Shown: piece by piece, positions 6,073-32,644 of the stretch
How the letters are laid out: each line of letters opens with the position of its first letter
How positions within the stretch are numbered: position 1 is the first letter of the stretch
Origin: Pseudomonadota bacterium
Lineage (GTDB): Bacteria > UBA10199 > 2-02-FULL-44-16 > JBDRGF01
Direction of reading: 5' to 3'
Assembly (NCBI GenBank): GCA_043818055.1
Contig: JBDRGF010000058.1
Coordinates: forward strand, 1-37,352
Length of the DNA: 37,352 nt
Position numbers and translations under genes: made by a program
The notes under the pieces: model-generated
The model's database searches: none
What the model was told of the DNA's origin: nothing
Seen by the model: only the letters and a program-made list of their open reading frames with translations

Positions 6073-6149
6073 TAGGGGCGGTTCGCGAACCGCCCGTACG
6101 CTGAATAACCAGCAACCAACTAGCGACAAGTCAACCAGCGACCAGCAAC
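6054..6149. repeat. Composite repeat: GTAG-type REP within heptamer repeat, related to 247-345
   Basis: GTAGGGGCGGTTCGCGAACCGCCCGTAC (6072-6099) has the same core as 269-292; flanked by GTCGCTGATTGGTTACTAG and ACCAGC/ACTAGCG heptamers. Confidence 0.85.
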
Positions 6150-10762: not shown

Positions 10763-10809
10763 TTTTTTGAGTTAATAGGAGTTAATAGTCATTTTCGCGA
10801 AGAAGCCTG

Positions 10810-12309
10810 TTACCGAAATTGTTTGTATATCGAATCATTGTAGGGGAGCATTTTGGTACAGGAAGCCGTTTTCGGGAAGTCAGAGAACGGCTTTCTTTTT
10901 TGATATTCAAGGGTTGTGCCGTTCAAGGCCAAGTTCGAAAGTGTAAGATTTATGATTTGCCGTTTTTGATCGACTTTCGAACTCTCGAATAGGTCGTAAG
11001 CGCGGGAAGCCAGATCAAACAAGGTCAGGAGGGTAGTGTTGAACTTTTCGTCGGCTTCTGTATGCCGCCTCAAATCCTCGCCTAATTCATCTTGCCTATC
11101 CCTCAATTGAGTACACTTTTTGTCATACTCACTCTGTGTAATACTCACCTCTAATCTCATATCCAATAGGCGTTCGAGTTTCTTTTGTGTGAGATTATAT
11201 TCGCTATGGATTCGATTGATTGCCTCCTGATGATATTCCCTTTTGGCCAGAGCCGATTTATTCAGATGATTCTTGATTGCGCTTAAAACATCATCGGGAA
11301 TCTGAAAGCCTTTGAATATATCATTGACCTGATCCAAGACCTGCTCTTCACGCAGCCTCTTGCCTTCACAAGGGCCTTTCGATTTCGTGCAATGCAGATA
11401 GACATATTTTTCCTTCTTGAGATCGCTGGTAATCGTGCATCCGCAATGTGCGCACTTGATGAGGCCTCGAAAGATGAATGGCTTGTCGGAATATTTAAAC
11501 GGCTTCTTTTTCCAGCCGAGACGAATCTCCTGACAGCGGTCAAACAACTCTTTTGAAATAATCGGTTCATGCTTTGCGGGAAGAATTTGTCCTTTTATTC
11601 TCATAACACCATAGTAAAAAGGATTTTGTATCAGCTTGTGAATTTTGCTCGACGGCATCGGGCCGCCATAGCTTGTTTTAAGCCCCCACTGTTTTGCAAG
11701 ACCGGCCATCTCACGAACTGACCTACCGCCTTGACCATACTCCTGAAAGATTCGTTTAACCAAGAAGGCTCTTTCCGGATCTGGAACAACTTTCTTTTTG
11801 CCTGTAGCAGGATCGATGGTGTTTATGTAGCCAACAGGTGCCTTGCCGATCCATTCACCGTTTTTTATCTTGTGATTGATACTCCGCTTAACGTTATCGC
11901 TCAAGCTCAACACATAAGAATTTGCCATCAAGACAGCCATATTCCACATGAGGATCTGTGTGCCGCTCGATTCACGGTTGATGACAAGGTTTTCACGGCT
12001 GAAATGAAGTTCGATAGTCCCTTTGAGCCTATATTCCTCAAGCAAAACAGTTTCCCTGAAACTTCTCTGAAACCGATCCACAGCATCGCATACTATTGCC
12101 ACCGTCTCCTTTTGCTTCTTCGCAAAGGCAAGCATCTGGTGAAATTCTTTCCGGTCGCCCTGTGTGGATGATTCGATAATTGTGAAGACCTTTAAGACCT
12201 TGAACTGTTTCCGCTGGCAGTATTCCTTGAGCCTCGCAATCTGGGCATTGATAGAGTGGCCTTCCTCCTGTTCCCTTGTTGATACTCTGGCAAGAATGAT
12301 TGATTTCAT
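10810..12309 (-). CDS. Large serine recombinase (integrase)
   Basis: ILARVST..Q..G.S...Q catalytic motif, DRFQR, G.W.GKAP.GY, recombinase domain NPFYYG..HEPIIS.ELF, zinc ribbon CAHCG..YLHC, coiled coil. Start set at MKSII (12309; AAGGCGG upstream), 499 aa; last 10 aa are host-derived. Confidence 0.95.
   Translation of the reverse strand: MKSIILARVSTREQEEGHSINAQIARLKEYCQRKQFKVLKVFTIIESSTQGDRKEFHQMLAFAKKQKETVAIVCDAVDRFQRSFRETVLLEEYRLKGTIELHFSRENLVINRESSGTQILMWNMAVLMANSYVLSLSDNVKRSINHKIKNGEWIGKAPVGYINTIDPATGKKKVVPDPERAFLVKRIFQEYGQGGRSVREMAGLAKQWGLKTSYGGPMPSSKIHKLIQNPFYYGVMRIKGQILPAKHEPIISKELFDRCQEIRLGWKKKPFKYSDKPFIFRGLIKCAHCGCTITSDLKKEKYVYLHCTKSKGPCEGKRLREEQVLDQVNDIFKGFQIPDDVLSAIKNHLNKSALAKREYHQEAINRIHSEYNLTQKKLERLLDMRLEVSITQSEYDKKCTQLRDRQDELGEDLRRHTEADEKFNTTLLTLFDLASRAYDLFESSKVDQKRQIINLTLSNLALNGTTLEYQKRKPFSDFPKTASCTKMLPYNDSIYKQFR
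10834..10860. other. Left attachment junction (core GGGGAG 10843-10848)
   Basis: Host ...ATCATTGTA|GGGGAG|CATTTTGGTACA... element; the core equals LSR codons Leu-Pro on the minus strand. Confidence 0.8.
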
Positions 12310-12401
12310 AAAACCGCCTTTTGAGCAGCATATTGCCATACTAATGGCCATTACTGAAGGTCCTTATTATGCCGATAGTTCAAATGGTTACGGTTGACAT
12401 T

Positions 12402-12467
12402 AATTATGCCACAACCTGTGGCAAAATTGCCGTTCTCCTCAATTGGGCAACCGCCCGTTGCCCTTTT
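12402..12467. repeat. Two 27-bp palindromic units (39-bp period) matching the yhcG internal repeat
   Basis: AATT-ATGCCAC-AACCT-GTGGCAA-AATT (12402-12428) and AATT-GGGCAAC-CGCCC-GTTGCCC-TTTT (12441-12467); 12439-12467 is 26/29 identical to 14435-14463. Confidence 0.8.
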
Positions 12468-12472
12468 GTCCA

Positions 12473-13015
12473 TCAATGCAAAATCAAATCTTCACGGAAC
12501 GGTTCATTTGCAAGCTTCTTCATAGCCTCAATCGAATAGTTCCAACTGAGGTTCTTTTGCGGTATTCTGTTCATCTCGCGAATCGTCTTCTGCATGTTAC
12601 ATTTCTCAACTCCATCATCCCTCAAAATATAGAACTGGTAATGCCTAATAAGATCGTTAATATTTCCAAGCACGCGCTTACTCGTACTACGCCCAACCTT
12701 GAAAACGCTGCCAACTTCCTTCGCTTTTCTGATCCACTCCGCTGAGAATCCTTCGGACAGCAAGGCATCGTAGAATGCGCTGTTGAACACCGCCGGAAGT
12801 TCATTCTTGAGCGTTGCCCTCGCAACATTGAATACGACGAAAGAAAACAGCGTTGCATCATTTACGAATATAATACCGTGATTACGAGAAACCCCAATGA
12901 CATGTGCATGCCAGTTACCAAGAGGCGAAATCGATACAGCATTATCGGATGCCAGTTGGTTCTCTGGAAGATCCAGCTTTTTTAACAATTTTTGCGTACA
13001 ACGTAATATCAGCAT
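12473..13015 (-). CDS. Hypothetical protein, DUF6933-like
   Basis: MLILRCTQKLLKKL, LGNWHAH, FVND.TLF, T.SKRVLG.IND, N.IP pattern recalled from DUF6933 proteins. Confidence 0.7.
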   Translation of the reverse strand: MLILRCTQKLLKKLDLPENQLASDNAVSISPLGNWHAHVIGVSRNHGIIFVNDATLFSFVVFNVARATLKNELPAVFNSAFYDALLSEGFSAEWIRKAKEVGSVFKVGRSTSKRVLGNINDLIRHYQFYILRDDGVEKCNMQKTIREMNRIPQKNLSWNYSIEAMKKLANEPFREDLILH

Positions 13016-13018
13016 CTT

Positions 13019-13591
13019 TTATCCTTTTTCAGAATCAATGTGCATCATCTTTTCACGACAACACCATTTGAATTTTTTGCCACTGCCGCATATGCAAGGA
13101 GAATAAGGATCAATATTCTTGATATTCAAGCGGAGATTTTCTCCTGCATAATCTTTATTTGCGCCTTTAATAACCTTCCATATTTTATGGGTTGGATTTT
13201 TTAAGGCAGTCTTTACCATTTTATAGTGTTCTTCTAAACGGTCGATGAAAATAGTGTCCATCAGAAGGACTTCCTTGAAGAGTTTTAATAATGCCGATGA
13301 ATACTCAGATTGAACGTTCAACTCGTCTAGAAAAGATTGTTCTTTTATATCATCATCCGGCAGCGGAGGTTCAAAGGAGTGATTGATGGTCGCTAAATGT
13401 TTCGCAGGCTTTTCAGAAACCACGTTGAACATTACTCGGCTACAATCACAATTCGGGTCAACGCAATAAAGTTCAACAAAGCCATAATTTCCTTTTGGCA
13501 AACCATCTTGTTCTTTAAAAACAGTGATTGTCCTTGTTTCTTCCAGCCCAATATCCGGAAATAGCTGGTGAAACATCATCATGCCTTCCAT
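13019..13591 (-). CDS. SEC-C motif protein
   Basis: C-terminal PCICGSGKKFKWCC; N-terminal ELYC.DP.CDC.RV cluster. Start set at MEGMMMF (13591; AGAGGTG RBS). Confidence 0.8.
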   Translation of the reverse strand: MEGMMMFHQLFPDIGLEETRTITVFKEQDGLPKGNYGFVELYCVDPNCDCSRVMFNVVSEKPAKHLATINHSFEPPLPDDDIKEQSFLDELNVQSEYSSALLKLFKEVLLMDTIFIDRLEEHYKMVKTALKNPTHKIWKVIKGANKDYAGENLRLNIKNIDPYSPCICGSGKKFKWCCREKMMHIDSEKG

Positions 13592-13661
13592 AAAACACCT
13601 CTTTACTGTTTTAATGTGGTAATAACCCGCTCTTATTACCACATTAATTGTTTCTATTACC

Positions 13662-14807
13662 CTATTTCGCCTTCCCTCGTTTTTTCCGAGTCTTTCTTTC
13701 GCCTGATAACTCCGACTCAATTTGTTTAACCGAAGGTAAGCTGCTTTTTAATTTAGCAGGAAGTTTTTGTGTCAGTTCATATCCAGATACGCCAATCGGT
13801 TTGTGAATATCGCGCAAGGCGTATTCGGCAAGTATCCGATCGCGATCCTGGCATAAAATCAGTCCTATTGTCGGATTGTCATTTTCGTCTCTCAGCTTGT
13901 CATCTACCACGCTGCAATAAAAATTCATCTTTCCGGCGTGTTCCGGTTTGAAGGGACCTTTTTTAAGTTCAATGACGATGTAAGAACGAAGTTTTAAATG
14001 ATAGAATAGGAGATCGATGTAGAAATCGTTTTCACTTACCTCAACATGATACTGACGTCCTACAAACGCAAAACCTTGTCCAAGCTCAATCAGAAATTTT
14101 TCAAGATGCTTGATGAGACCGGTTTCCAATTCACGTTCATGGAAGGGTTCCTCCAATGTCATAAAATCGAAAATGTACGGATCCTTGAGTGTTTGCTGTA
14201 CAAGGTCAGATTGAGGAGCAGGCAGGCGCGTCTTGAAATTCGATGTCGCCTTGCCATGACGTTTGTGGACGCTCGATTTTATCATGGCAACCAATACATC
14301 ACGACTCCAGCCCTGTTCCAACACTTGTTGCATGTACCAATATCGAATGCCCAGATCTTTAATCTTCTGCATCAGAACGATGTTATGTGCCCAAGGTATT
14401 TGTGAAACGAGCTGTTTCACTTTTTCGGCATCGTTCAATTGGGCAACCGGCGGTTGGCCTTTTTCAGTGGCTTGCAATTGGCCAACTGGCCGTTGGCTAA
14501 TTGAGATAACACCTTGATATTCCTTGTAAAATTGAACCATGAGCTTAAGATTCGTAACTGAAAACCCTTTGATTTCAGGGAGTTCATTATGAAGGTCTTT
14601 CGCCAACCTTGGTAATACACCAGCTCCCCAGCCTTCCTGATCTTGTCGTTCTGAAATCATCCAACCCACATCCCAATAGGTTGCAAGCATTTCCGAATTG
14701 GCTGCCCACATCGCCCGCGTCTGTCCTTGCCTGATTCTATTTTTGATCTCATCAAGGAGCTGGCCGTAATAAGCAAGATCAGATTTTTTGGTTAAAGCTT
14801 TTGTCAT
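13662..14807 (-). CDS. YhcG/DUF1016 PD-(D/E)xK nuclease family protein
   Basis: YWDVG, WG..V...LAKDL, KGFS..NL..M.QFY, KDPY.FDF, ELG.GFAFVGRQ, DLLFYH, VIELK, G.MNFY, PTIGLILC. Confidence 0.93.
   Translation of the reverse strand: MTKALTKKSDLAYYGQLLDEIKNRIRQGQTRAMWAANSEMLATYWDVGWMISERQDQEGWGAGVLPRLAKDLHNELPEIKGFSVTNLKLMVQFYKEYQGVISISQRPVGQLQATEKGQPPVAQLNDAEKVKQLVSQIPWAHNIVLMQKIKDLGIRYWYMQQVLEQGWSRDVLVAMIKSSVHKRHGKATSNFKTRLPAPQSDLVQQTLKDPYIFDFMTLEEPFHERELETGLIKHLEKFLIELGQGFAFVGRQYHVEVSENDFYIDLLFYHLKLRSYIVIELKKGPFKPEHAGKMNFYCSVVDDKLRDENDNPTIGLILCQDRDRILAEYALRDIHKPIGVSGYELTQKLPAKLKSSLPSVKQIESELSGERKTRKKRGKAK
14397..14502. repeat. Three in-frame 7-5-7 palindromic units, 39-bp period, inside yhcG
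   Basis: GTGAAAC-GAGCT-GTTTCAC (14402-14420), GGGCAAC-CGGCG-GTTGGCC (14441-14459), GGCCAAC-TGGCC-GTTGGCT (14480-14498). Confidence 0.85.
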
Positions 14808-15301
14808 GGAGTTGCCTCCTTAATAATCTCCTGAGTTTTATTCCTTTGATTAGCCCATTCGAGAAAATATCTACCGAACTCGCGATTCAGCGTTCTAACC
14901 CATTCAACAACATTCTCTCCTTGGGAGATGAGTTTATCAAAACATTTCCCGTAATATTCTTTATGAAAGTGATAAACGCCGTGCCGATATATTTTTAGGA
15001 GTTCAAGATTCTTCGATGCTATCAAATTGTCTATTACAGAGTCAGTTAGGCCAAGTTTTTCCCATCCTGCACATACAACATAAAGGCCAGCGTACCAGAG
15101 GCTCATGTACATTAATTGTTCAATATCGTTACCTGGTTTTGATTTGTTCTCCTCTTTAAAACATTCATCAAAATGCGTTCTCATTCTATTGGCCCAAATG
15201 AAGTAGCGGTGTAGTGTGAGAACTGCGAATTGATTTTTGAGGTGCGATATTTCGTTCTGCTTCTCCTCTCGTTTAGCTTTATTAGGTGATTCAATATTCA
15301 T
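14804..15301 (-). CDS. Hypothetical protein with HEPN-like Rx4H motif
   Basis: Helical-looking ~165 aa protein with YRHGVYH near the C-terminus; stop overlaps the yhcG start (ATGA). Start ATG 15301 or TTG 15307. Confidence 0.6.
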   Translation of the reverse strand: MNIESPNKAKREEKQNEISHLKNQFAVLTLHRYFIWANRMRTHFDECFKEENKSKPGNDIEQLMYMSLWYAGLYVVCAGWEKLGLTDSVIDNLIASKNLELLKIYRHGVYHFHKEYYGKCFDKLISQGENVVEWVRTLNREFGRYFLEWANQRNKTQEIIKEATP

Positions 15302-15328
15302 TACCAAAACCCTTTTGCCACTGGGGGG

Positions 15329-15769
15329 CTATCTTCCTGCATCTTTTGCTGCTTTTTCGATCCACTTTCCCATATTTTTATAGCCATCATTTTTATTCCA
15401 TAAATAAAAATCATATCCTTCAGGAATTCGACCACACCTTTCAGAAGTTTTGCCCTGTAAATCTTTTATTTTGCTGATATCTATGCCGAGCAATCCATTA
15501 CCTCTTTTAATGCTCTGACTAATTTCGTATTTTACCCACCTACTGTTGCAGGTTTTTTCGCCAACAAGTACGACGGTGACAGACGTTCCCTCTAATTGTT
15601 TATTAATCCATCCCTTGATAGCAACATCACCTTTCCTTTTTATTGCTTCAAAACTTGCGGCATCAACAAAACCTGCGGCTTCTCTTTCTTGCGTAACCCA
15701 GCTGTTTCTTACAACCATTGCTCTGGACACGTCTTTATATTTAAAACTGAAAAAGACTTTTCTGGCCAT
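15329..15769 (-). CDS. TIR domain protein (DUF1863 / Thoeris ThsB-like)
   Basis: RKVFFSF.Y, WI..QL.GTSVTVVLVG..T..SRWVKYEI..S...GNGLLGI; catalytic Glu present. Confidence 0.9.
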   Translation of the reverse strand: MARKVFFSFKYKDVSRAMVVRNSWVTQEREAAGFVDAASFEAIKRKGDVAIKGWINKQLEGTSVTVVLVGEKTCNSRWVKYEISQSIKRGNGLLGIDISKIKDLQGKTSERCGRIPEGYDFYLWNKNDGYKNMGKWIEKAAKDAGR

Positions 15770-15772
15770 ATG

Positions 15773-16204
15773 TTAATCTCCCTTCGATGCAAAGAATTGC
15801 AAATATACAAATAATCCTACCACCACTATAATCAGAGCTAGATATAATTTTATAATGGTAGTTGAAATAAGAACACAGCGGTATCTACACTTTCCTTCGG
15901 TGTATAGATCAGGCCTCATTTCGAATGGTTTTAGCTGTTTAGGATTTTCAGATATTCCGGCCACATCATTGTACAGTGCTCGGAATTTTCTTTCTTGAGT
16001 CAGGTAGTAGGAATCTAAGAACCAAAATATTATAATTGGGAAAACGCTGACGAGGATGAAGTAGTTATTATTTGTTGCCGCATAAACGGCCAGCAGCGCT
16101 GAAGTAATAGCTACAGTCCACTCCTTTATTTGAAAAGAGTTCGTATTCATTCTTGTGATTACATTCTGAATAAACTCTAAATGCTTTATTTTTTCGTCTG
16201 TCAT
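15773..16204 (-). CDS. Small membrane protein between two TIR genes
   Basis: 143 aa; HLEFIQ.VI.RM..NSF.IK.W then three hydrophobic segments and FWFLDSYYL..ER.FR.LY; AAGGAG RBS. Confidence 0.75.
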   Translation of the reverse strand: MTDEKIKHLEFIQNVITRMNTNSFQIKEWTVAITSALLAVYAATNNNYFILVSVFPIIIFWFLDSYYLTQERKFRALYNDVAGISENPKQLKPFEMRPDLYTEGKCRYRCVLISTTIIKLYLALIIVVVGLFVYLQFFASKGD

Positions 16205-16241
16205 ATAATCTCCTTATCAACCACAGGTGATATGTGATCCC

Positions 16242-16874
16242 TTAATAAATATGAGTAGTGTCATGAACTTTACACTTCAAATTTCGCCATATCATCTCTT
16301 GTGGATTGTCTATGAGATAAGATTTATTTAAAGATTGATTGTAAGCTTCCTCAATCCATTGTCTCAATTGTTCAGAATTGGTGGGCCATTTATAATATCT
16401 AGCGTATGAGATATCGGCCAAGTCAAAAAAGTGATTTTTTGAGAATCTGTCTGGCCTGTAGTGCCCAATGACATTTCCATATATATCAAAAGGAGGTGGC
16501 ACTTCTAGACCTAAAAGACCGTTTGGAAGGCCATTGGCCGGTTGTCGGAGAGAGCTTTTTATTTCCCAATCAACATATTTCCGACTATGAGTACACTGTC
16601 CAATCACCACAATAGTAACAGAAGTATCCTGAATGTATCTTTTTCTAATTTGCGAAATAATATATTCAGAGTCAGTACTATCCACAAAGTCATCTTCATC
16701 CTTAACGCCAACAACGCGAGGTATGAATGCGCCTGTTCCAGGTTGCCCATAATCATCAACCAGTTGTTTCACCCAATCCTTATCGCCCTTGTAATAAGAT
16801 ATAAAAACCTTCCTTCTAGGTAGGAGGTCTATCAAGTTTTCGTAAAGAAATGGATTTCTATCAAAAAGCCCCAT
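16242..16874 (-). CDS. TIR domain protein (DUF1863 / Thoeris ThsB-like)
   Basis: RRKVFISYY..D, IR..YI.DTSVTIVVIG.CT.SRKYVDWEI.SSL, NGLLG; catalytic Glu present. Confidence 0.9.
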   Translation of the reverse strand: MGLFDRNPFLYENLIDLLPRRKVFISYYKGDKDWVKQLVDDYGQPGTGAFIPRVVGVKDEDDFVDSTDSEYIISQIRKRYIQDTSVTIVVIGQCTHSRKYVDWEIKSSLRQPANGLPNGLLGLEVPPPFDIYGNVIGHYRPDRFSKNHFFDLADISYARYYKWPTNSEQLRQWIEEAYNQSLNKSYLIDNPQEMIWRNLKCKVHDTTHIY

Positions 16875-16875
16875 G

Positions 16876-19800
16876 CTATTTGTTTTGCTCCTTTTGTTCT
16901 TTCAGTACCTCCACACATTCCGCAATGACTTTCAATTCGCCTTCTTCTGCATCGGTGAAAACTATCGGCTCAAAATCCGGATTGTTTGGTTTCAACGTAA
17001 TCTTTGTGTGCCGCCAGTCGTCATCCGTTTGCTCTTTTTCACTTTCATATCGCTTCACGGTATAGCGTTCGCCGGTTTCCGGATCTGAGATGTCACGCAT
17101 CTGGACAAGGACTGTTTTACCTCGTCTGGTTCCCTCAACAGGCGAAACAAAGAGACAGTAGGAGCCATCCGGTATTGCTGGCTCCATCGACTTTCCAACC
17201 ACCTGAGCGACAAACATGCCTTTGCGAAGGCTGTGTTTGGAGCTAATAGCAACCCATTCCCAGTCGCCGTTCTCGACTTGTTGTGGGTCGCTAAAGGCAC
17301 CTGCTGCAACTTTGAGTGGAACCAGAGGCACGCAATTCACATATCGCTCTTCTGGCTTCGGGTAGACAACCTTGAGATGGTGTGCAGAAGAAACTTGATG
17401 TGTCGCACCTGCACTGGCCAAATCTGTTTTATATGTTTGCGAAAACACAGTATCAGAGAGCCATTTTTTGAAATTTGGGTTGTCGCTGAATTGTTTGAAC
17501 AATTCCGTGTGGTCAGAGAGCAAATCAATAACAACCCTTTGCAAGGCACGATCATGCTCTAAACGCGCAGCCGCCTTGTCAGAATGCTTCATTGCATTCT
17601 GGTACTTCACATCCGCCGACACTTTTTCAGGAATTTCTTCGGCAATGATTTTTCGAATTTTATCTTCATCCTTCCAGTCAATATTGCCAAACTGTTCATT
17701 GAATGATTTGACAATATTACTCAGTCTATCCAGTTCGGGTTCCGGTTTGCCTCCACCATAACTGGTAGGCACCGGTCCCACCTCAGAATCTGTATCAGGC
17801 AGCGCAATCCGCATCGTTTCCTTTACCTCATTGCGGTAACTGTCCATGTCGATAGTCTCAAGAATCCCCTTGGACAAATCTTCCTCTACTGGAGCTGGCA
17901 ACTTGGGGACTAGAAAATTGAGAAAAATGGACAGTTTCTCCCAACCGGCATTCGTATAGGGAAGAATAGATGCCAGGAATTGATATGTGCGAACAAATGC
18001 CTTGGCCTTTCCTTTAAAATCTACCTGTCCATTTTCATCCAAATCACTGGTGTAAAATGCAACGCACGCATCCAAAATAGGATCTAGCTTATCGCGCTCT
18101 GCTCCCCCAAGAAACAGGGCAGCCAACGTCTCGACCTGATCAGTGTTATAGACCTGATATCCATCCAACGTGGCCTTTAAGTCATGTAGTTTGTTGGGAT
18201 CTGTTTCTTCACTTAAAACGGTTGTCCGGTAGTAATCGGAAAACGCGAGCGTAATTGTGTCGGTATCATTCATGAAGTCGAGCACAAAGGTGTCTACTTT
18301 TTGAGGGTGGGCGCGATTAAGCCGCGATAATGTTTGGACGGCCTTAACTCCTGAGAGCTGTTTGTCCACATACATGGTGTGAAGCAGGGGTTCATCGTAG
18401 CCCGTCTGAAACTTATCGGCAACGACCAGCAACCGGTATGGATCTTGCTGAAATTTTTTCACGATCTGCGAACTAGGGAATTCATTGAAGGAGGCTTCGG
18501 ACATCTGTTTGCCACAGATCTCACGTTCACCTGAAAATGCCACAATCGGACGATATGGACTCTTACGTTCTTTGAGATATGCGGATATCGCTTGAAAGTA
18601 CTGGATGGCGCGATTGATGCCGCTGCAGATAACCATCGCACGGGCTTTTCCAGCAATCTTTCGCCGTGCAACAACTTGTTCATGAAAATGGTCCACCATG
18701 ATCTCAGCTTTTTGCCTAATTGCATGATCATGTGACTCAACGTAGCGTCGCAGTTTTTTCTTAGCCCTTTTGGTATCGAACTCTGGATCGTCTTCAACTG
18801 TCTTGATAAGCCGGTAATAGCTCTCAACCGGCGTGTAATTGGCCAAGACATCTAAAATAAAACCCTCTTGAATGGCCTGCTTCATGGTGTAGCTGTGAAA
18901 AGGGCGGTGCTTTATCTTGTCTCCGGACGGAATGGGTTCGCCAAAAAGCTCCAATGTTTTATTCTTGGGTGTGGCGGTAAAAGCAAAATAGCTTGCGTTA
19001 CCAAGCATCTTGCGCGATTCCATAATACGGTTGATCGTATCCTCAAATGTCTCATCCTCCTCCTCGCCGCCATTTTCAGCGAGTGCAATGTTCATTTTTG
19101 CTGATGTCCGCCCTCCCTGGCTAGAGTGGGCCTCATCAATAATAATGGCAAACGATTTTCCGCGATGCTCATCGCCAATCTCGTCGAGGATGAACGGAAA
19201 CTTCTGTACTGTGGAGATAATGATCTTTTTTCCCTCTTTTAGAAATTTTCGTAAATCCCCGCTATGCTCAGCATGCCCAACAGTCGCCGAGACTTGCGCA
19301 AACTGCTTGATTGTGTCCTTGATTTGTTTATCGAGGATCCTGCGGTCCGTCACCACAATGACTGACTCGAATGTTGATTGACCACTCTGATCTAAACCAA
19401 TCAGTTGATGTGCCAGCCACGCAATAGAATTGCTTTTACCGCTTCCTGCCGAGTGCTGAATCAAGTACCGTTTGCCAGATCCTCTCTCTTTGGCATCGGC
19501 CAATAATTTTCGGACAACATCAAGCTGGTGATACCGTGGAAAGATCTGTTTGCGTGATTTCTTGCGGCCTTTTTCATCTTTTTCTTCGATAACCTGGGCA
19601 TAGTTTTCGATGATATCTGTAAGACCGACTTTGGTTAAGACCTCTTCCCACAAATAAGCTGTTTTAAGCCCGTTGGGATTTGGAGGATTACCCGCACCGT
19701 CATTAAATCCTTTATTAAAGGGTAAAAACCATGAATCATTCCCTTTAAGATGAGTGCACATCCTCACTTCCTGATCATCCACCGCAAAGTGTACAATGCA

Positions 19801-20358
19801 GCGGCCAAATTGAAACAATAGTTCTTTGGGGTCGCGATCCCGTTTATATTGCTGGATGGCATCGGCAACGGTCTGTTTGGTCAGGCGATTCTTGAGCTCA
19901 AATGTGGCAACGGGCAAACCGTTGATAAAAACACCAAGATCGAGTGAAAGTTGTGTTTCGTCTTTGCTGTACCTTAGCTGCCTCGTTACGCTAAAGATAT
20001 TGGATCGAAAGCGTTCTTCTGCTTTGAGATTGCCGGGGGTTGGAGAGCCATAAAAGAGATCAAGGTGAACCGGACCGTGTTTTACGCCATGGCGCAGGAC
20101 ATCGATGACACCACGCTTGGCGATTTCTCCTTGGAGCCTATGTAAAAACTGAGTTCGCTTGGGGCTTTCTTGCGCTAGGTCGAGCGCATTTGCAACATCG
20201 ACCTGGGTTGTTTCAGTAAACGCTCGAAGTTGTTTGAGATCAATGGAATGGTCGCGATCGAAATCGGCAGGTTCGCCTTTAATATAACCGGCCTGATTGA
20301 CAAGGGATTCAACAATGAGTGTTTCGAGACCTTTTTCAGATGTGTCAGTTGTTCGCAA
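16876..20358 (-). CDS. hsdR: Type I restriction enzyme R subunit with C-terminal S24 (LexA-like) peptidase domain
   Basis: DL..FINGLP....ELKN nuclease motif, [32 protein letters not shown]; last ~160 aa contain [15 protein letters not shown] and TVKRY. Confidence 0.95.
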
Positions 20359-21718
20359 CGGCCACCTCCTCGTCTATTAGGTCATCAGCCTCTACGATTT
20401 CTTCGTCAATTATGGGCTCTTCTTGTAACTCCTCAACATCAGCATCAAGATCGATATTTTTTGCCAGTTCACGGACATCTATTTTGCCTGTTACGACGTC
20501 TGTTATGAGGCGTGTGCGGTATTCTTTGATGAGGTCGATTTCTTTACGAGCGGTATGAACTGCTTTTTCAAAATATTGAGAAATTTTCTTTATTTTTATA
20601 ACAATATTCTTCTGTTCATCAATAGTTGGTAAAACAACTTTTTGTTTTTTTACAACGCTACCAGTTATAAGCGGTTGGGCGTTTGCATTAGCCAACACGT
20701 TTAAATTCATGGCTCTCATCTGAAAGCTCAAATATTCTATGTCGAAGCAACGGATATTATTTACCCTCAGTGCATTGTCTGTAATCCATGCATTTTCAGT
20801 TATAAGATGTACATTACCACATAATGCACCTACTCTACCTATTACGATAGTTGCACTTTCACTGTTGTAATGATTTGCATAGCCTAGTATGCCGTTACCG
20901 CCTATCACGGGAAAAAGATGGGGTATGTTTTTATTATCGGTTATCTTGTTACCATCTAAGAATGTCCCTGAAGATATACTTATATACCAGCGAAGGGGTA
21001 CAACTCTCCAATGCTCCGGAATCTCCCCAACCCACTCAACACCAGACGCTTTCATTTTTACATTCGGGTCAAGGCCGCGCGTTACAACCTTGTTGATAAT
21101 CGCCTGCTTTTGTTCATTAAGAACCTTGATAAGCTTTTGGCGGTTGCGGATGAAGCGAGCAACCTTTTGCTCAAAAGATCTCAAAAACAGCACTATTGAA
21201 TCTTGTTCAGTCTTCGGTGGCATACAAGAATAGATCATCTTGAAATGTTCAGGTCGCAAACTCCACATATCAGAAGTGATGCCATACGACCATCTCTCAG
21301 CCTCTTTGGCAAAAGCAGGAGTTCTAAATAAATAATGAAAATAATCAGAATTATCATCTTGTCGCAACCTGACTACAATATATGCAGGACTAACTATGCC
21401 ACGATATTTCGAAACCCCAATAGCACCTTGCCAGGCACGCATCTTGTTATAGGCAATGTCTCCCGGGTCCACCAACTTGTACTTTGCCTTATCTAAGTTT
21501 GAAGAGTCTTTTTTTGAAGAATTGGCCAGTAGGTCTTTTTGCTTAAGAATACCTTTGGAAATAGTCACTGACAATAACGGTTCTTCCGTATAGCCTTGTT
21601 TCTTGATCTCTTGAAAGACAGCACGATGCGGTACGCATTCCCAATGTTCTGGAATGTTGCCCAGCCAGGCTTGCTCAGAATCCTTATATTCGGGATAGGG
21701 TTTAAATTCTTGCGTCAT
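20345..21718 (-). CDS. hsdS: Type I restriction-modification specificity subunit
   Basis: Two target-recognition halves each starting W.G.IPEHW; PP..EQ / P..DEQ spacers; [15 protein letters not shown]; acidic tail. Confidence 0.93.
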
Positions 21719-23631
21719 GCCGCAGTCCCTCCTGGAGTAATGATTTGATCCAGCAATCCTTCGGCTTCATTTTGGAGTGCAATGAGATCTGTTTTGATTT
21801 CATCTAAAGAACGCAACGGTACGGGTTTATAAAAGTGTTTGGTAAAAGAGATTTCGTAGCCTATTTGAGTCTTGCTATGATCAATCCAAGCATCAGGTAC
21901 GTGGGGCAAGACTTCGCGCCTAAAAAAGGCATCGATGCCGCCTTCTTCTAAAAGCGGAACCTGTTCAGTATCGCGTAAATCGGAGTCCGGTTCATGTTCG
22001 ACACCATTTTTCGTCTTCTTTTTAAGTACCGGAGGGGCATCGGGTGAGGTGCCGTTCTTTTCTCTAAGCTCTTTTAACTCTTTTGCCTTGTAAACTTTGT
22101 TGGGATCTATCCCCCGTATTCGGAGTGGGCGTTCAACCGTTATCTTCCAATACCCAAAAGCCTGATTATCAAAAATCTTCGATTGCTCCGATTCCTCAAA
22201 AGACAAAAACATATCCGAGATTTGTTTGATTTGTGCATCTGAAAATTCACAATTCTTTTTTCCAAGATTCTTACGAAGTGGCTGAAAAATATTGGTGGCG
22301 TCGATTAATTGAACTTTCCCCTGACGTGCTTTAAGTTTGCGATTGGAGAGCACCCAAATGTAGGTGGCAATACCGGTGTTATAAAACATATTGAGTGGGA
22401 GTGCGATGATGGCCTCAAGCCAGTCATTTTCTATAACCCACCTGCGGATATTTGATTCGCCCTGTCCGGCATCACCCGTAAAAAGCGACGAACCATTGTG
22501 AACCTGCGCAATACGGCTGCCGAGCTCGGTGTTATGATTCATTTTGGCGAGCTTATTAACGAGAAACATCAACTGGCCATCACTGGAGCGAGTAATGAGG
22601 GATAACTCGTCACCTTTGTGCTGCACAGCAAATCGCGCATCTGAAAGATCTTTTTTTCCACCCATTCGCTCTAAATCGGTCTTCCAACTCTTGCCGTAAG
22701 GTGGATTGGAGAGCATAAAATCAAATTCCATTGAGGGGAAGGCATCGGAAGAAAGCGTTGAACCATACTTCATATTGTCAGCCGCTAATCCCTCACCCTT
22801 AATCAATAGGTCGGCCTTGCTAATTGCGTAGGTTTCGGGTTGGACTTCTTGGCCGAACAGATGAATCGAAACATCTTTTCCGTGATCCTTGGCTAACTGA
22901 TCGAGTGTTTCTTCGGCCAAGGTGAGCATTCCACCTGTGCCGCAAGCACCGTCATAAACGCGATAGGTGGCATCTTGAATTTTATCGGCGACCGGATAGA
23001 AAATCAGATTCGTCATGAGCTTCACAACATCACGCGGGGTAAAGTGCTCACCCGCTTCTTCATTATTTTCTTCATTAAAGCGGCGGATGAGTTCTTCAAA
23101 GATTGTACCCATTGCATGGTTATCCAAGCCGGGGAGCCTCTCCTTGCCGTCCTGATCAAAGACCGGTGTGGGTGCCAGATTGATATCGTTGGATGTGAAT
23201 TTTTCAATTAAGCTGCCAAGAATATCGGCCTCAACCAATGTAGGGATTTGATTGCGAAACTTAAACTTGTCGAGAATCTCCTGCACATTGGGCGAGAAAC
23301 CGTCGAGGTAGGCCTCGAAATCCGATTTAAGCTGTTGCTGCTTGGATCGTGCCCGTAAATCACGAAGGGTAAACGGGGAGATGTTATAAAAGGCATTCTC
23401 TGCTGCCTGACAGAGGGCCGCATGTTTATTGGCTACTCCAGCCTCATCGAGCTGCTTGCTTAATTTAAGTACGGCTTCTTTTGTGGGCTCCAGGACGGCA
23501 TCAAGTCGGCGAATGACGGTCATAGGTAATATGACGTCGCGATATTTCCCACGCACATAAACATCCCGCAGCACATCATCAGCAATGCCCCATATAAAAT
23601 TTGCAATCCAATTTAGTTTTCCATTTTGCAT
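21715..23631 (-). CDS. hsdM: Type I restriction-modification methyltransferase
   Basis: FIW.IAD..LR, AGEHFTPR.V, YDGACGTGGML, NPPYG, GSSLFTG, MFYNTGI.TYIW. Confidence 0.96.
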   Translation of the reverse strand: MQNGKLNWIANFIWGIADDVLRDVYVRGKYRDVILPMTVIRRLDAVLEPTKEAVLKLSKQLDEAGVANKHAALCQAAENAFYNISPFTLRDLRARSKQQQLKSDFEAYLDGFSPNVQEILDKFKFRNQIPTLVEADILGSLIEKFTSNDINLAPTPVFDQDGKERLPGLDNHAMGTIFEELIRRFNEENNEEAGEHFTPRDVVKLMTNLIFYPVADKIQDATYRVYDGACGTGGMLTLAEETLDQLAKDHGKDVSIHLFGQEVQPETYAISKADLLIKGEGLAADNMKYGSTLSSDAFPSMEFDFMLSNPPYGKSWKTDLERMGGKKDLSDARFAVQHKGDELSLITRSSDGQLMFLVNKLAKMNHNTELGSRIAQVHNGSSLFTGDAGQGESNIRRWVIENDWLEAIIALPLNMFYNTGIATYIWVLSNRKLKARQGKVQLIDATNIFQPLRKNLGKKNCEFSDAQIKQISDMFLSFEESEQSKIFDNQAFGYWKITVERPLRIRGIDPNKVYKAKELKELREKNGTSPDAPPVLKKKTKNGVEHEPDSDLRDTEQVPLLEEGGIDAFFRREVLPHVPDAWIDHSKTQIGYEISFTKHFYKPVPLRSLDEIKTDLIALQNEAEGLLDQIITPGGTAA

Positions 23632-23647
23632 GAGTTACCTCTATCTT

Positions 23648-24478
23648 TTACAGTTTATTTTTTCTGATAGTGACATATCTTATTAGCTCATATGTAGCCC
23701 TACAATAATAGGGCATCAAATTAAAATAACCTTCAACTTCAGTGCGTGTAAATTTGGAGCCGGTTGGATGACCTGCTGAGTTACGGCTGGTCTTAATTAG
23801 TAAAAATATACCTGGAATATGATGCTCAATAGCATCACGTAGTGCGCCATTATCATTCAATATCGTTCCTTTATGCGCCTGAAGATAATTGCTAAATCCC
23901 TCCCATTTTTTATGGATTAGATTAGGTTTTAGAACTTTTCTTTCATACGAATCATAAGTGCTAACTTTTTTTGAGAAGGCCGCCATCAATTCCAATATAA
24001 TTGTCTCGCTGACGTTACCCAACATTGTCATTGTCGCAATATAGCAACCTGATCGAAAACAATGGAGAGCTTCTGTTAAATAGAGTTCGGCTTTTTCAGA
24101 TAAATTGGTGTCGTTCTTTATATTGGCAACGTATCCATCGGGGTCATAAGGCGTTACAATCCCATTTTGAAAACATTGACTCCCATATTCTGTAATTGTC
24201 AGCCACGGCCATGAGTCATTTTGGTTTCCGGGAATCCCCGGCATTAACAAACCCTGTGTAATCAAGGACCACACAATTTGAAGTACAAACTCGGATTCCT
24301 TTCTGTATTCTCTGTTTAGAAAGTCAGAACCATCATCAAACTGGCACCGAATAAAACCAAGCTCCTGTGCACAGAGTGCTGTGCCCCTTAGCACATTCCC
24401 AAATTGAAGTTGCTCCGAGCGTTGGAGAGCCTTTTGAAAAAACAAAAAAACTGCTTTGTGTGTGTCGCTATATTCCAT
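23648..24478 (-). CDS. Hypothetical protein with C-terminal HEPN-like (DUF4145/Abi-like) domain
   Basis: YL.EA..CF..G.Y.A...MLG...E followed by RNSAGHP (Rx4H); N-terminal region ending W..ITEYG resembles a winged helix. Confidence 0.65.
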   Translation of the reverse strand: MEYSDTHKAVFLFFQKALQRSEQLQFGNVLRGTALCAQELGFIRCQFDDGSDFLNREYRKESEFVLQIVWSLITQGLLMPGIPGNQNDSWPWLTITEYGSQCFQNGIVTPYDPDGYVANIKNDTNLSEKAELYLTEALHCFRSGCYIATMTMLGNVSETIILELMAAFSKKVSTYDSYERKVLKPNLIHKKWEGFSNYLQAHKGTILNDNGALRDAIEHHIPGIFLLIKTSRNSAGHPTGSKFTRTEVEGYFNLMPYYCRATYELIRYVTIRKNKL

Positions 24479-24889
24479 TCAAAACCCCAATAACTTTGTA
24501 ATTTGCGCTACCTGTTTGGCTACCTTGGTTATTCCGGCACAGGTCATGACCACCGTGTGAATCTTCTGCAGTTTGCTCTCGCCATTGCGGTCGTTTATTG
24601 CCTCATTGACGGTCTTACGGATGGTATTGGATTTGGGATGATCGCCGATATTCTTGGCGATTGATCTGAGTGCCACATCGAACTGGTTATTCAGATCGAC
24701 TGTCACGCCAACGCCGGGTTTTATGGGGATGGAGATATGCATGCCGACGCTATCATTGGGACCAACCTTACCCCCGATTTGCAAGCCGACCACACGCCTT
24801 GGTCGATCAAGACGCTGTTTGCATCTTGGGCATGAGACGGGGCTTGCTTTTTTGGGCGTCCATTCATATTCGCAATATTCACATTTCAT
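24479..24889 (-). CDS. Zinc-ribbon-containing hypothetical protein
   Basis: CEYC..EW.PK...P..CPRCK at the N-terminus; start set at MKCEYC (24889; AAGGAG upstream). Confidence 0.65.
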   Translation of the reverse strand: MKCEYCEYEWTPKKASPVSCPRCKQRLDRPRRVVGLQIGGKVGPNDSVGMHISIPIKPGVGVTVDLNNQFDVALRSIAKNIGDHPKSNTIRKTVNEAINDRNGESKLQKIHTVVMTCAGITKVAKQVAQITKLLGF

Positions 24890-24926
24890 GGTATGAGCTC
24901 CTTTGACCGGATATTTATTACTATTA

Positions 24927-26084
24927 TTATTCACCTGTCAACAATTTGCTTTTCTGTGTACCCATTGCGTTTGAAAGCCTTATGGGGTCGAATAATTCCA
25001 AATCGTCACTTATCTTTTTCAAAGCACCGGTTATAGGACTGCAATGTCCCTTCGTGCCCATATTGCTTTGCATTCGTTTCAGTGTGGCGGCAGCCGTCTT
25101 GCCCAAAATAGATTTTATGCCCCGTATCCCTATTGTGTCTGTTGCCGTTATCAACCCCAACATCTGCAATGCCGTTGATGGCCGGATGTTTGGGTTGTTC
25201 TTAACGATCTCCTGCAATAGTTCTTCAGGCCTCTGCTTCTCGAACTGCAACCATTTGGCCTCGGACATGATCTGGTTCCAGAAATGGAGAAGGATGGTCT
25301 GCGATGTTTTTTGATTGAGGGCATCTGTGAATGTCAGAGGCGGTTCTATTCCAAGCTTGTGACAGAGCCTTTTGATCTTGGCGCGGCTGTTTAAGCGGGC
25401 TTCCATCCGGAGGACTTCGAAGGGCTTTGGCAAATGGTGAAGCAAGTCTAGCTGAATTGAATTGTCTGATTCAATCGCACGCCTCTCGCTGATTCTGGAT
25501 TGCATGAGGTCTTTGATCTTATCGTAGAAGACGATCTCGTAACTGTTTGCATGATACCGAAGGGCGTGGCCGTTGTTACGATAGTCGGTCTTGTTGAGAT
25601 CAAGGCGGCTGTTCAGATTCAGTTTCGAGAGTTGGCGTAAGACCATTGAGCTCGTTGTGTAATCCGTGAAGACAAAGTTCTTTGAGTAATGGACGGCGGA
25701 GAGTTTCGAATTGGTTACTTGAAATGGCAGGATTTTAACACCTGTTGCTAATGCCTCATTAGCAAAAAACGCGCTATGACCTGTCGTGTTTTTGAGGTCG
25801 TCTTCCTCAAAATTGTTGCCAAAAAGAAGCTTCGGTAGCGAAAATTCAGCACGAAGATATTCCGCATAACCGCCTCTTGCGATACGTTTTGTCAGTGTGA
25901 ATCGCGGTCTATAAATGCCGCGTGCAAGGTCTTCTTTGCTGGGATTCTGAAAACACCTGACGCACCCATTGCGCCCGATTCGATTGGGAGGGGCTTCCAT
26001 CATCCGTGCAGATGGGCTAAAGAGATCAGGCTCAAGAATCTCAAACTGATCCTTCTCAAATGTGATTGCTATCGTATCGATCAT
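24927..26084 (-). CDS. Phage/plasmid replication initiator (gene II/X-like, rolling-circle type)
   Basis: MIDTI start, EFSLPKLLFGNN, IVFYDK..D, VLR.E.RL motifs recalled from the gene II/X replication protein family. Confidence 0.7.
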   Translation of the reverse strand: MIDTIAITFEKDQFEILEPDLFSPSARMMEAPPNRIGRNGCVRCFQNPSKEDLARGIYRPRFTLTKRIARGGYAEYLRAEFSLPKLLFGNNFEEDDLKNTTGHSAFFANEALATGVKILPFQVTNSKLSAVHYSKNFVFTDYTTSSMVLRQLSKLNLNSRLDLNKTDYRNNGHALRYHANSYEIVFYDKIKDLMQSRISERRAIESDNSIQLDLLHHLPKPFEVLRMEARLNSRAKIKRLCHKLGIEPPLTFTDALNQKTSQTILLHFWNQIMSEAKWLQFEKQRPEELLQEIVKNNPNIRPSTALQMLGLITATDTIGIRGIKSILGKTAAATLKRMQSNMGTKGHCSPITGALKKISDDLELFDPIRLSNAMGTQKSKLLTGE

Positions 26085-26352
26085 TGTGTTTCCTCATCAC
26101 GTCTTCAAATTTTCTGACAACAGCCTCTTCAATAATCCTGCCGCACTCGTGTGTGATAGGATGAACGACCGGACGATTGATAATGTTCGATTTTCCGTTT
26201 GGATAGGTCAGCCGATAACCGTCACCGCCCAATCGCTTATGAATGGCTATTGAGCCGACGTATATCTGGCCGTCGATTACAAGACTTGCAAAGCCGACAA
26301 GACCATCACAGGGCTTCACAAAACTGATGTTCACCTCGGATATCTTCATCAC
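26056..26352 (-). CDS. SpoVG-like nucleic-acid-binding protein
   Basis: MKISEVNI......GLVGFAS.VID....V.SIAI, L.YP, HPI..E....IE.AV..KF matches the SpoVG pattern. Confidence 0.8.
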   Translation of the reverse strand: MMKISEVNISFVKPCDGLVGFASLVIDGQIYVGSIAIHKRLGGDGYRLTYPNGKSNIINRPVVHPITHECGRIIEEAVVRKFEDVMRKHNDRYDSNHI

Positions 26353-26527
26353 ATTTTCCCTCTTTATCTGTATTGGCTTTGGCAGCGGAGGACCGCTCTT
26401 TATCGATCTGCATAAGGAGCTCGAAAAAGCTCACAAGATTCATAGCACTCTGGCTGAGTTCCGACTCGGAATCGTGGGGTGAGTATCTGCTGATCGCTGC
26501 CTTGAGCTCTGAAAACGTATCCTCCAT
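26306..26527 (-). CDS. Small hypothetical protein
   Basis: Amphipathic helix ELSQSAMNLVSFFELLMQID; co-oriented ahead of the SpoVG-like gene; start uncertain (26527 or 26563). Confidence 0.55.
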   Translation of the reverse strand: MEDTFSELKAAISRYSPHDSESELSQSAMNLVSFFELLMQIDKERSSAAKANTDKEGKCDEDIRGEHQFCEAL

Positions 26528-26668
26528 ACACAGTAATATGCTTTGGACGAAAACTCCCGGCACTTTTTCATATTTGAAAAGAGAGGTATGAGATTTGAAA
26601 TCTCCGGTATAAGTCGCCCATGTTGGGGTTGGGGGTGATTTGAGGGATGACGAGCCGCCATCCGTAAA

Positions 26669-26773
26669 TTAAGCCGCCTGTTGCCCCAACAGTTCGCGTA
26701 TAGCGGGCACAAGGGGCTCAAAGGCCATGATCTCCTTGAAATACTTGGTTCGGAATGTGTCCACTAGGGGGAG
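26669..26773 (-). other. Detached 3' end of the recombinase gene and right attachment junction (core GGGGAG 26768-26773)
   Basis: Reads LP-LVDTFRTKYFKEIMAFEPLVPAIRELLGQQAA*; its LP codons (CTC CCC) are identical and in phase with LSR codons at 10843-10848. Confidence 0.8.
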
Positions 26774-26827
26774 GGTTTCAAACCCTCCCGAAATCACAAT
26801 CAGGGCAGGTTTAAAACCTGCCCCTAC
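26768..26827. repeat. Inverted GTAG-REP doublet (left copy interrupted by the element)
   Basis: GGGGAGGGTTTCAAACCCTCCCG (missing its GTA, which is at 10840-10842), 11-bp spacer, then AGGGCAGGTTTAAAACCTGCCCCTAC (26802-26827). Confidence 0.88.
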
Positions 26828-26853
26828 ATTTATAAAGAAGACCGCCCGAGATT

Positions 26854-28662
26854 TCACTTCCTCTGTGACGCAGACAAGATATTTTTTCTTATCCTTACGC
26901 TCTTTGGTGTCACTTCGACCTGTTCATCATCGCGAATGAATTCAATTGCCCGCTCCAGTGTTATCGGGATAATAGGGCTCAAGACTGTGCTCTCATCCTT
27001 ACCAGCCGCACGCATGTTTGAAAGCTTCTTCTCCTTGCAGGGATTGACATTCAGATCATTTGATCTGTTGTGCTCTCCGATGATCATCCCCTCGTATACA
27101 GGCATTCCGGCCCTTACGAATAGTATGCCTCTCGGTTCAAGATGAAACAGGCCATATGTGACAGTGTCACCAGGCCTGTCAGCGACTAGCGACCCTGCAG
27201 TGCGATGTACGATGTCCCCTCTGTACGGTTCATATTCCTGAACATACGAGTTCATGAGTCCGGTGCCTTTCGTGTCGGTCAGGAATTCTCCCCGGTATCC
27301 GATCAGTCCACGCGAAGGGATTGAAAATTCAAGTCGCACGCGTCCGGTGCCGTGATTGATCATGTTGACCATTCTGCCCAGCCTCTTTGAAAGTTTCTCT
27401 GTGACGATGCCTGTAAAGGTATCCTGGATGTCGATGAATAGATGTTCGATGGGCTCTAAAAGTTTTCCGTTCTTTTCCTTCATTATCACTTCAGGCCGCC
27501 CGACGCTCAATTCAAATCCCTCTCTGCGCATCATCTCGATCAAAATTGCCATCTGAAATTCGCCGCGTCCTTTTACGATAAAGCTGTCGGCCGTCTGTCC
27601 CAATTCGACTTTGAGGGCGACATTATGAAGGGTCTCCTTCTGCAGACGCTCAAGTATTTTTCGCGACTGAACAAGGTTTCCTTCACGGCCGGCAAATGGA
27701 GATGTGTTTATCATGAATTTCATAGAGACTGTCGGTTCATCCACGATGAATCTTTTCAAAGCCTTTGGCTTCTCCTGCGTGCAGATAGTATCCCCGATCT
27801 CGATATCTTCAATCCCTGAGAGGATTAAAATATCGCCGGGCTCGACAAAATCGGCCTTCTTTACGCAGATGCCATCGTACACCTGAAGGGATGACACCTT
27901 AAGAGGATGGGGAAGGTCATCATGTGTTATACAGACCAGCCGGTCATTTATTCGAACGCTGCCGTTAAAGACCCGCCCTATCGCGAGCCTTCCCAGATAA
28001 TCGGAATAAGAGAGGTTCGTGACCAGCATCTGAAAGGGTTCGTCCGGATCGTATGATGGAGGCGCAATCTCCTCAACAATAGTGCGAAAGAGGGGGATTA
28101 AATTTTTACTATCATCATTTAAATCTTCTTTGGCGATGCCCTCTTTTGCAATAGCATACAGCACAGGAAATTCTATCTGGCTATCATCGGCGTCGAGGTC
28201 GATGAAGAGGTTGTATATCTCATCGAGGACTTCGCTGCAGCGTGCGTCCTTTCTGTCGATCTTGTTTATGACGACGACTATTTTCAGATGAGCCTGCAGC
28301 GCCTTTTCAAGAACGAATCTCGTCTGCGGAAGGGGACCTTCAGATGCGTCGACGAGAAGGATCGCGCCATCGACCATCTTGAGACCGCGCTCGACCTCTC
28401 CACCGAAATCTGCGTGGCCGGGAGTGTCTATGATATTTATCTTGATGCCCTTCCAATAGACTGCGCAATTCTTCGAGGCGATGGTGATGCCGCGCTCGCG
28501 TTCGAGATCCATGCTATCCATAATGCGATCATCGACCTCCTGATTGACGCGGAAGCTGCCGCTCTGCCGAAGCATGAAATCGACCAATGTAGTTTTGCCA
28601 TGATCGACATGGGCTATGATAGCTATGTTTCTTACGTTTGGGTTTTGTTTAAGTTTTTTCAT
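26854..28662 (-). CDS. typA: Translational GTPase TypA/BipA
   Basis: RNIAIIAHVDHGKTTLVD, DTPGHADFGGEVER, NKID, GRGE, SRGLIG, VYEGMIIG, EVTPKS.R.RK. Start set at MKKLK. Confidence 0.97.
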   Translation of the reverse strand: MKKLKQNPNVRNIAIIAHVDHGKTTLVDFMLRQSGSFRVNQEVDDRIMDSMDLERERGITIASKNCAVYWKGIKINIIDTPGHADFGGEVERGLKMVDGAILLVDASEGPLPQTRFVLEKALQAHLKIVVVINKIDRKDARCSEVLDEIYNLFIDLDADDSQIEFPVLYAIAKEGIAKEDLNDDSKNLIPLFRTIVEEIAPPSYDPDEPFQMLVTNLSYSDYLGRLAIGRVFNGSVRINDRLVCITHDDLPHPLKVSSLQVYDGICVKKADFVEPGDILILSGIEDIEIGDTICTQEKPKALKRFIVDEPTVSMKFMINTSPFAGREGNLVQSRKILERLQKETLHNVALKVELGQTADSFIVKGRGEFQMAILIEMMRREGFELSVGRPEVIMKEKNGKLLEPIEHLFIDIQDTFTGIVTEKLSKRLGRMVNMINHGTGRVRLEFSIPSRGLIGYRGEFLTDTKGTGLMNSYVQEYEPYRGDIVHRTAGSLVADRPGDTVTYGLFHLEPRGILFVRAGMPVYEGMIIGEHNRSNDLNVNPCKEKKLSNMRAAGKDESTVLSPIIPITLERAIEFIRDDEQVEVTPKSVRIRKNILSASQRK

Positions 28663-32509: not shown

Positions 32510-32644
32510 ATAGCATTTTCAACCTTTGAGCCCCTCTCCCTTGACGGGAGAGGGTTTGGGAGAGGGTGTTTGTTTTGCTATCGAAATCACCCTCCCCTTA
32601 ATCCCCTCCCCTCAAGGGAGGGGAGCATAGAGTAGTGATGCTAT
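32510..32644. repeat. G/C-run palindromic repeat bracketed by ATAGCAT/ATGCTAT
   Basis: CCCTCTCCC-TTGAC-GGGAGAGGG, GAGGGTG/CACCCTC and CCCCTCCC-CTCAA-GGGAGGGG hairpins (32531-32624); 7-bp outer inverted repeat at 32510-32516 and 32638-32644. Confidence 0.8.

Follow-up and report, generated by a model that had tools for sequence, protein, structure and literature searches.

Attachment (att) sites inside serine integrase genes are already known. The rumA ICEs of streptococci, which are conjugative and target a protein gene, carry single serine integrases with the att site inside their own gene; the C-terminus is exchanged on integration, a role of the two forms has been proposed only, and neither a degron nor selection on the tail is described in the accessible part of that work (PMC4701971). 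DsiB of the Dehalococcoides ssrA islands also has its att site inside a serine integrase gene, targets tmRNA and is accompanied by a second small recombinase, DsiA, and its tail is uncharacterised in the available part of the report (PMC3146451). In myxophage Mx8, attP lies inside int, a tyrosine recombinase gene, and integration replaces 112 C-terminal residues with 13, with a fall in activity (according to PMC4701971). In mycobacteriophage BPs and its kin, attP lies in the repressor gene and integration removes a C-terminal proteolysis tag; the tyrosine integrase, tagged in the free form, keeps its tag, and the basic switch, as far as the accessible accounts go, uses no recombination directionality factor (RDF) (PMC3694055, PMC9635641). 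The suicidal integrases of archaea (SSV1, pTN3), of the tyrosine family, have the att site inside the integrase gene and tRNA-type targets, and their gene is split into inactive halves (PMC8371274).

The window, by which the whole 37,352-nucleotide stretch of DNA analysed is meant, contains an island of 15,925 bp (10849-26773) whose att site almost certainly lies within the 3′-terminal part of the integrase gene that the island itself carries, with an in-frame core. As in Mx8, the rumA ICEs and DsiB, the crossover falls inside a coding sequence with in-frame alternative C-termini; the likeness to DsiB is one of description. The locus differs from the rumA ICEs in the tRNA-end target of its family, from Mx8 in that 32 residues are exchanged for 10 and the domains of a serine integrase stay intact, and from BPs in that attP and the putative tag both lie in the integrase, with no repressor domain across attP. 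Unlike the archaeal genes, it loses a short tail only. Domain order, a short common core, a 5-bp shift of the outer motif between attP and attB and a small helical partner with a predicted position at the base of the coiled coil are shared with LI/A118, SPbeta and TP901-1 (PMC3783163, PMC11722253, PMC12286644), from which the locus departs in its self-editing gene, the tRNA 3′-end target of its family, an apparently unconstrained other host arm and an RDF candidate of no known family. The accessible part of PMC12884075 makes no mention of an att site inside an integrase gene, and the literature search found no paper on a removable degron-like serine-integrase tail, on the tRNA-end family or on the small protein; subscription papers and supplements could hold one. 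What is added here is a test of selection on the tail, a tRNA-mimicking site and an RDF candidate.

Integrase gene, attachment core and island boundaries

The features of the island and its ends, in window coordinates, are:

10810-12309, minus strand: large serine integrase, integrated form of 499 aa; residues past Pro489 are read from host DNA
10810-10842, minus strand: tail of 10 codons plus stop, supplied by the host; TCGAATC (10830-10836, plus strand) stands here in tRNA T-loop register, a likely pseudo-attB arm
10843-10848: core of 6 bp on the integrase side (Leu488-Pro489); the crossover is most likely to fall in 10846-10848
12473-14807, minus strand: cargo, YhcG/DUF1016 nuclease, SEC-C protein and DUF6933
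15329-16874, minus strand: cargo, two ThsB-like TIR genes around a PDC-M50A gene
16876-23631, minus strand: cargo, type I restriction-modification genes (M, S, R)
24927-26084, minus strand: 385-aa protein similar to Phage_CRI (gpII-type) initiators of rolling-circle replication, with relatives in 41 loci
26056-26352, minus strand: 98-aa SpoVG-like protein, kept next to the Rep gene in 21 loci
26306-26527, minus strand: 73-aa two-helix protein without a Pfam match; candidate RDF
26645-26663, minus strand: hairpin past the stop of the tail; not above shuffles, no terminator call
26669-26767, minus strand: detached 32-codon integrase tail with an Ala-Ala-stop end, under purifying selection, predicted to form two helices
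26748-26751, minus strand: GAAC motif of the attP arm (codes for Arg-Thr), 5 bp further out than the tRNA-arm GAAC; putative binding motif of the zinc-ribbon domain
26768-26773: second copy of the 6-bp core, at the far island end
26768-26827, plus strand: rest of the interrupted GTAG-type REP doublet (multicopy host repeat)

The integrase consists of Resolvase, Recombinase and Zn-ribbon domains (Pfam) and has its best PDB matches in TP901-1 and A118. R8, S10, R79 and R82 are invariant, as is Met1, and the coiled coil is formed by long helices 341-388 and 394-445 in the AlphaFold2 model of a homologue, P0010. Translation of 26669-26773 on the minus strand gives Leu-Pro followed by 32 residues that end in QQAA-stop. 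The tail swap on integration stands as originally predicted, with 499 aa encoded on the chromosome and 521 aa on the predicted circle, and all catalytic and DNA-binding domains survive it. The 10 residues gained were correctly traced to host DNA but are incidental read-through of the flank of a repeat. The hairpin pointed out directly after the tail's stop does exist and is unremarkable; it was rejected as a terminator (z +0.61 against shuffles, no terminator call, flanking DNA not conserved), the DNA 3′ of the stop not being kept in 4/5 relatives.

GGGGAG, present at both ends as the 6-bp core, is the sole sequence that the neighbourhoods of the two ends have in common, and it codes for Leu-Pro in one codon phase at both, as had been claimed. 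A 6-bp match alone could be chance, and the boundary is fixed by four further results. When the empty site was rebuilt and compared with intact REP paralogues by BLAST, 11/58 hits crossed the junction with at least 25 nt per side, the best three at 92-93% identity. A tail-only profile made from other proteins' tails had its best match among 45,338 six-frame segments in this stretch (E 1.3e-6). The island of a relative (G001:C10) is 87% identical across 25162-26773 and ends at 26773. Finally, a related integrase in run X5 parts from the window at 10846 and continues into a tRNA-like 3′ end, and the left junction is bridged without differences by contigs of X3 (an RNA run) and X5 (a DNA run). 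The boundary of the island is thus confirmed as real, and we infer its integration from the split REP and the relatives.

Excision at the core is predicted to give a circle of 15,925 bp. No circle or empty-site joint occurred in the contigs of four runs (X1-X4) over 10300-27300, where a depth of about 5 cannot show absence, or among loose ends at the left junction in X1, X2, X3 and X5. A search for free circular forms among the relatives found none: both of the closest 'phage' records are linear, with integration at a tRNA, and 0/20 tail-bearing ends checked sat on a contig with terminal repeats.

The GC content of the island is 0.435, and that of its flanks 0.48 and 0.47. The module genes have no PHROGs matches; Phage_CRI is carried by 17-26% of the members in the clusters nearest the 385-aa protein, which provides a lead. 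Among the cargo, the type I restriction subunit R (16876-20358, minus strand) has a C-terminal Peptidase S24-like fusion (residues 1012-1147), and no ThsA effector was matched for the TIR/PDC-M50A genes. A 29-nt palindromic repeat has three copies in the island (12439-12467, 14435-14502), one of them just upstream of the integrase gene. Outside the island, 3836-5062 (plus strand) is an AT-rich AbiLi/AriA-like ATPase gene.

Targeting of tRNA 3′ ends and the REP site of this copy

Of 119 homologues, most have an antisense-tRNA peptide at the C-terminus and 13 have a D.FRT tail. The 160 loci collected gave 145 distinct integrase ends, and the integrated end in relatives measures 3-66 residues (median 13). 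At 94 of these 145 ends, ARAGORN calls a tRNA 3′ end at the crossover column, with 14 isotypes represented and Asn the commonest; the anchoring of ends rewarded GAAC motifs, and the ARAGORN calls are independent of it. The T-loop GAAC lies at +20 in 107 ends and GAAC at +25 in 16, and the conserved Trp of integrated ends is the antisense of CCA. Judged from these sequences, the family targets tRNA 3′ ends; the closest relatives are at tRNA-Asn, -Gln and -Arg. Detached tails lie upstream of the integrase, on the same strand and in frame with the core, in 48 arms scoring above 8 with no decoy hit (P0025 was left out of the tail seeds, and L193, L194, L200 and L201 out of the 48 tail-profile hits). 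Positions +2 to +5 are identical in 14/14 end pairs (L019, L024 and L058 were left out of 17), which places the crossover at the discriminator base and the first acceptor pairs. The tails of L182 and L196 had been read as attached to the integrase, wrongly, as other open frames precede them.

Several arrangements within the family are recorded here in their own right. This genome has a second integrase of the family (L176; G000:C79:23590-25050), 35% identical and located at tRNA-Gln(CTG), with its far end off the contig. In one tandem array (L004:630-4267), three detached tails stand ahead of one integrase; in another (L040:1501-3153), the upstream integrase retains its full tail in the chromosome, so that full-length forms also arise at tandem junctions. 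In the closest relative (L174:545-826), the integrase has an internal deletion and terminates in a 16-bp copy of the tRNA-Asn 3′ end, with the tRNA itself some 190 bp away, which suggests that it was displaced from tRNA-Asn by a later insertion.

No tRNA, tmRNA or Rfam RNA was found at either end of the island, nor any tRNA in the window. The host side is instead a REP doublet of the GTAG type, of which the genome has dozens. Its arm carries TCGAATC in T-loop register and ranks second on the tRNA-arm profile among 1,448 genome sites with the core, and the exact heptamer occurs only in this copy among the A-type REP copies. GATA stands in place of a full GAAC and the profile score is below zero, so this copy may excise poorly. 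tRNA-Asn is not among the 45 tRNAs of the assembly (genome 94% complete). Insertion at a secondary site, whose REP flank mimics a tRNA-Asn-type 3′ end, is the likely origin of this copy. At 94/145 ends of relatives, and in the closest relatives, the integrase ends antisense in a tRNA 3′ end; this one ends in a tRNA mimic. REP as the normal target of the family was rejected, since no other of the 145 ends enters a REP and two motif matches are tRNA-Glu. REP-like palindrome families occur in the window at 242-327, 6049-6099, 26768-26827 and 32530-32626, and the genome has two Y1_Tnp (RAYT-like) genes.

Constraint on the detached tail and its Ala-Ala end

Conservation of LP.VD.FRT in homologues had been proposed as the check on the tail. 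This test is confounded because D and RT overlap DNA recognition motifs, and the tail is kept as protein, with D and RT of D.FRT partly reflecting the DNA binding site. In 43/43 arms, RT has its Arg encoded by CGA or AGA, codons that account for 39% of the 2,783 Arg positions in integrase bodies, and the invariant element of the arm is GAAC, at +25 in island arms and +20 in tRNA arms. In known large serine integrases, the zinc-ribbon motifs likewise lie 5 bp further out in attP than in attB (PMC3783163, PMC11722253). It could be argued on these grounds that the tail is conserved only because of the attP DNA site and has no role as protein. This explanation is highly improbable and is largely refuted by the synonymous excess and open frames that run on for 75 nt past the att motif, up to the stop.

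In tail codons 10-34, which lie outside the att motif, the window and L173 differ by 5 synonymous and 0 non-synonymous changes, and the six-member clade gives pS 0.58-1.08 against pN 0.10-0.29 in its 12 pairs of greater distance. Variable columns in these codons are distributed 15/5/23 over the three codon positions, with the reverse pattern in other frames, and the host-side DNA of the six close elements is only 22-38% identical. With a rule that uses DNA only, 17 upstream same-strand arms were found at the +25 spacing and 0 at six other spacings; all 15 distinct arms are open for at least 17 codons, as against 4/15 and 8/15 that reach 15 codons when read in the other frames. Across the family, the opening 16-20 codons of the tail are constrained and its end varies. 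The expectation that the tail is conserved in homologues is thus borne out by purifying selection in codons 10-34 of the six close elements; the region is under both DNA and protein constraint and, past the motif, under protein constraint.

The terminal Ala-Ala, whose conservation had also been proposed as a check, occurs in all six close tails, which are equal in length and encode Ala-Ala-stop with differing codons. Family-wide it is found in 11/62 distinct tails (7/58 without this clade), compared with 0/107 integrated ends, 16/1,137 neighbouring ORFs and 7/1681 host ORFs. The enrichment is 9- to 15-fold, with p 6e-5 for 7/58 tails against 16/1,137 neighbouring ORFs, a value in which kin are not independent; Ala is at the next-to-last position in 22/62 tails. 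Placed on a 46-row tree, the 8 Ala-Ala rows need 7 changes, the same as shuffled labels, which indicates repeated gain or loss rather than one clade. These comparisons support the view that Ala-Ala is kept by selection in this clade and enriched in the family. C-terminal Ala-Ala is read by ClpXP, and the ssrA tag ends in LAA. The host genome has clpX, over the family cut-off, and the Ala-Ala end is likely to be a degradation (ClpXP) tag. The tail of the window ends in QAA, unlike ssrA, which counts against the degron, and the absence of Ala-Ala from 51/62 tails means that such a tag is not the family-wide function.

The 73-aa protein and the meaning of the tail swap

The original prediction saw no recognisable directionality factor. 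This is not supported, because a conserved 73-aa gene lies 140 bp behind the detached tail and the predicted binding site of its product on the integrase is the one used by known RDFs. A profile search found its family, short two-helix proteins, in 81 loci (best decoy E 0.5); the small protein is present in 56/84 loci with 3 kb of upstream DNA, often directly ahead of the integrase, and the family, with 901 clusters, is confined to these islands. In a set of 41 related genomes, the small protein was found only in its own and in four with close integrases, three of which had rows in the query alignment. Identity of the small protein tracks that of the integrase (rho 0.49), which shared descent explains. 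In predicted complexes with integrase residues 267-488, it scored 0.76 against 0.02 for the best control; the mark for this score is reached by 116/157 solved pairs and 2/215 mismatched pairs. The runs agree in 93% of contacts, with a partner pLDDT of at least 81, and the interface on the integrase (337-349, 430-456, 472-479) is at the base of the coiled coil, not at its tip. SPbeta and other RDFs bind, or are predicted to bind, at this base (PMC11722253, PMC12286644). Virtual pulldowns gave false positives in the accessible account (PMC12286644), and the passing score may be an echo of solved integrase-RDF structures. On this modelling, the 73-aa protein is a candidate RDF of the integrase, with predicted binding at the coiled-coil base.

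The free circle would encode the 521-aa integrase with its predicted two-helix tail and likely ClpXP tag. After entry or excision, the circle, which carries the rolling-circle initiator gene, would yield a short-lived integrase, which would limit and time integration. Integration would then delete the tag and leave a stable 499-aa enzyme awaiting the RDF, and excision by that form would probably require the 73-aa protein of the island. We give about even chances to this reading, in which the circle form is tagged and short-lived and the untagged chromosomal form excises with the 73-aa protein. Compatible with it is a more tentative proposal, on the doubtful side, that the tail is mainly a structural switch: two amphipathic helices on the junction of zinc ribbon and coiled coil would mask the RDF site or fix the coiled coil, making the circle form integration-only, with Ala-Ala as an optional add-on. 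The family-wide constraint on the first 16-20 codons and the variable end fit such a switch. So do the tail helices of the P0010 model (486-498 and 501-518; a natural full-tail homologue, 56% identical), whose pLDDT of 71-83 drops to 46 at the extreme C-terminus. Some ten residues separate the last predicted RDF contact (472-479) from the start of the tail, which might cover the RDF site, and the truncated Mx8 integrase is less active (as given in PMC4701971). The switch leaves unexplained the enrichment of Ala-Ala over scattered branches, and mimicry of the small protein's sequence by the tail was rejected, since no profile similarity exists between the two.

A simpler function, that the tail only gives full activity or stability, as in the down-regulation of Mx8 on integration, and acts neither as a degron nor by masking the RDF site, is quite improbable. 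It has the Mx8 precedent and has been proposed for DsiB and the rumA ICEs (PMC4701971, PMC3146451), and in the P0010 model the crossover point is inside a predicted helix; the survival of all catalytic and DNA-binding domains and the Ala-Ala enrichment speak against it. The fullest version of the tagged-circle reading combines three parts in one module of a widespread tRNA-targeting family, in which a circle-only tail would both mask the RDF site and bear the ClpXP tag, so that the circle form integrates only, and briefly, and integration would expose the site to a new two-helix RDF family of about 900 clusters. As a whole, this combination is unlikely.

If the tagged-circle reading is true, the integrase would sense its own integration state via its C-terminus, and the logics of Mx8 and BPs would be joined in one gene. 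The locus would offer a direct test of the question raised by DsiB and the rumA ICEs, namely how the two integrase forms differ. Because databases hold mostly the truncated chromosomal form (a full tail being present in 13/119 homologues), mining for genome engineering may choose the wrong isoform. The targets of the family are native tRNA ends of 14 isotypes, and a candidate RDF family can now be named for it.
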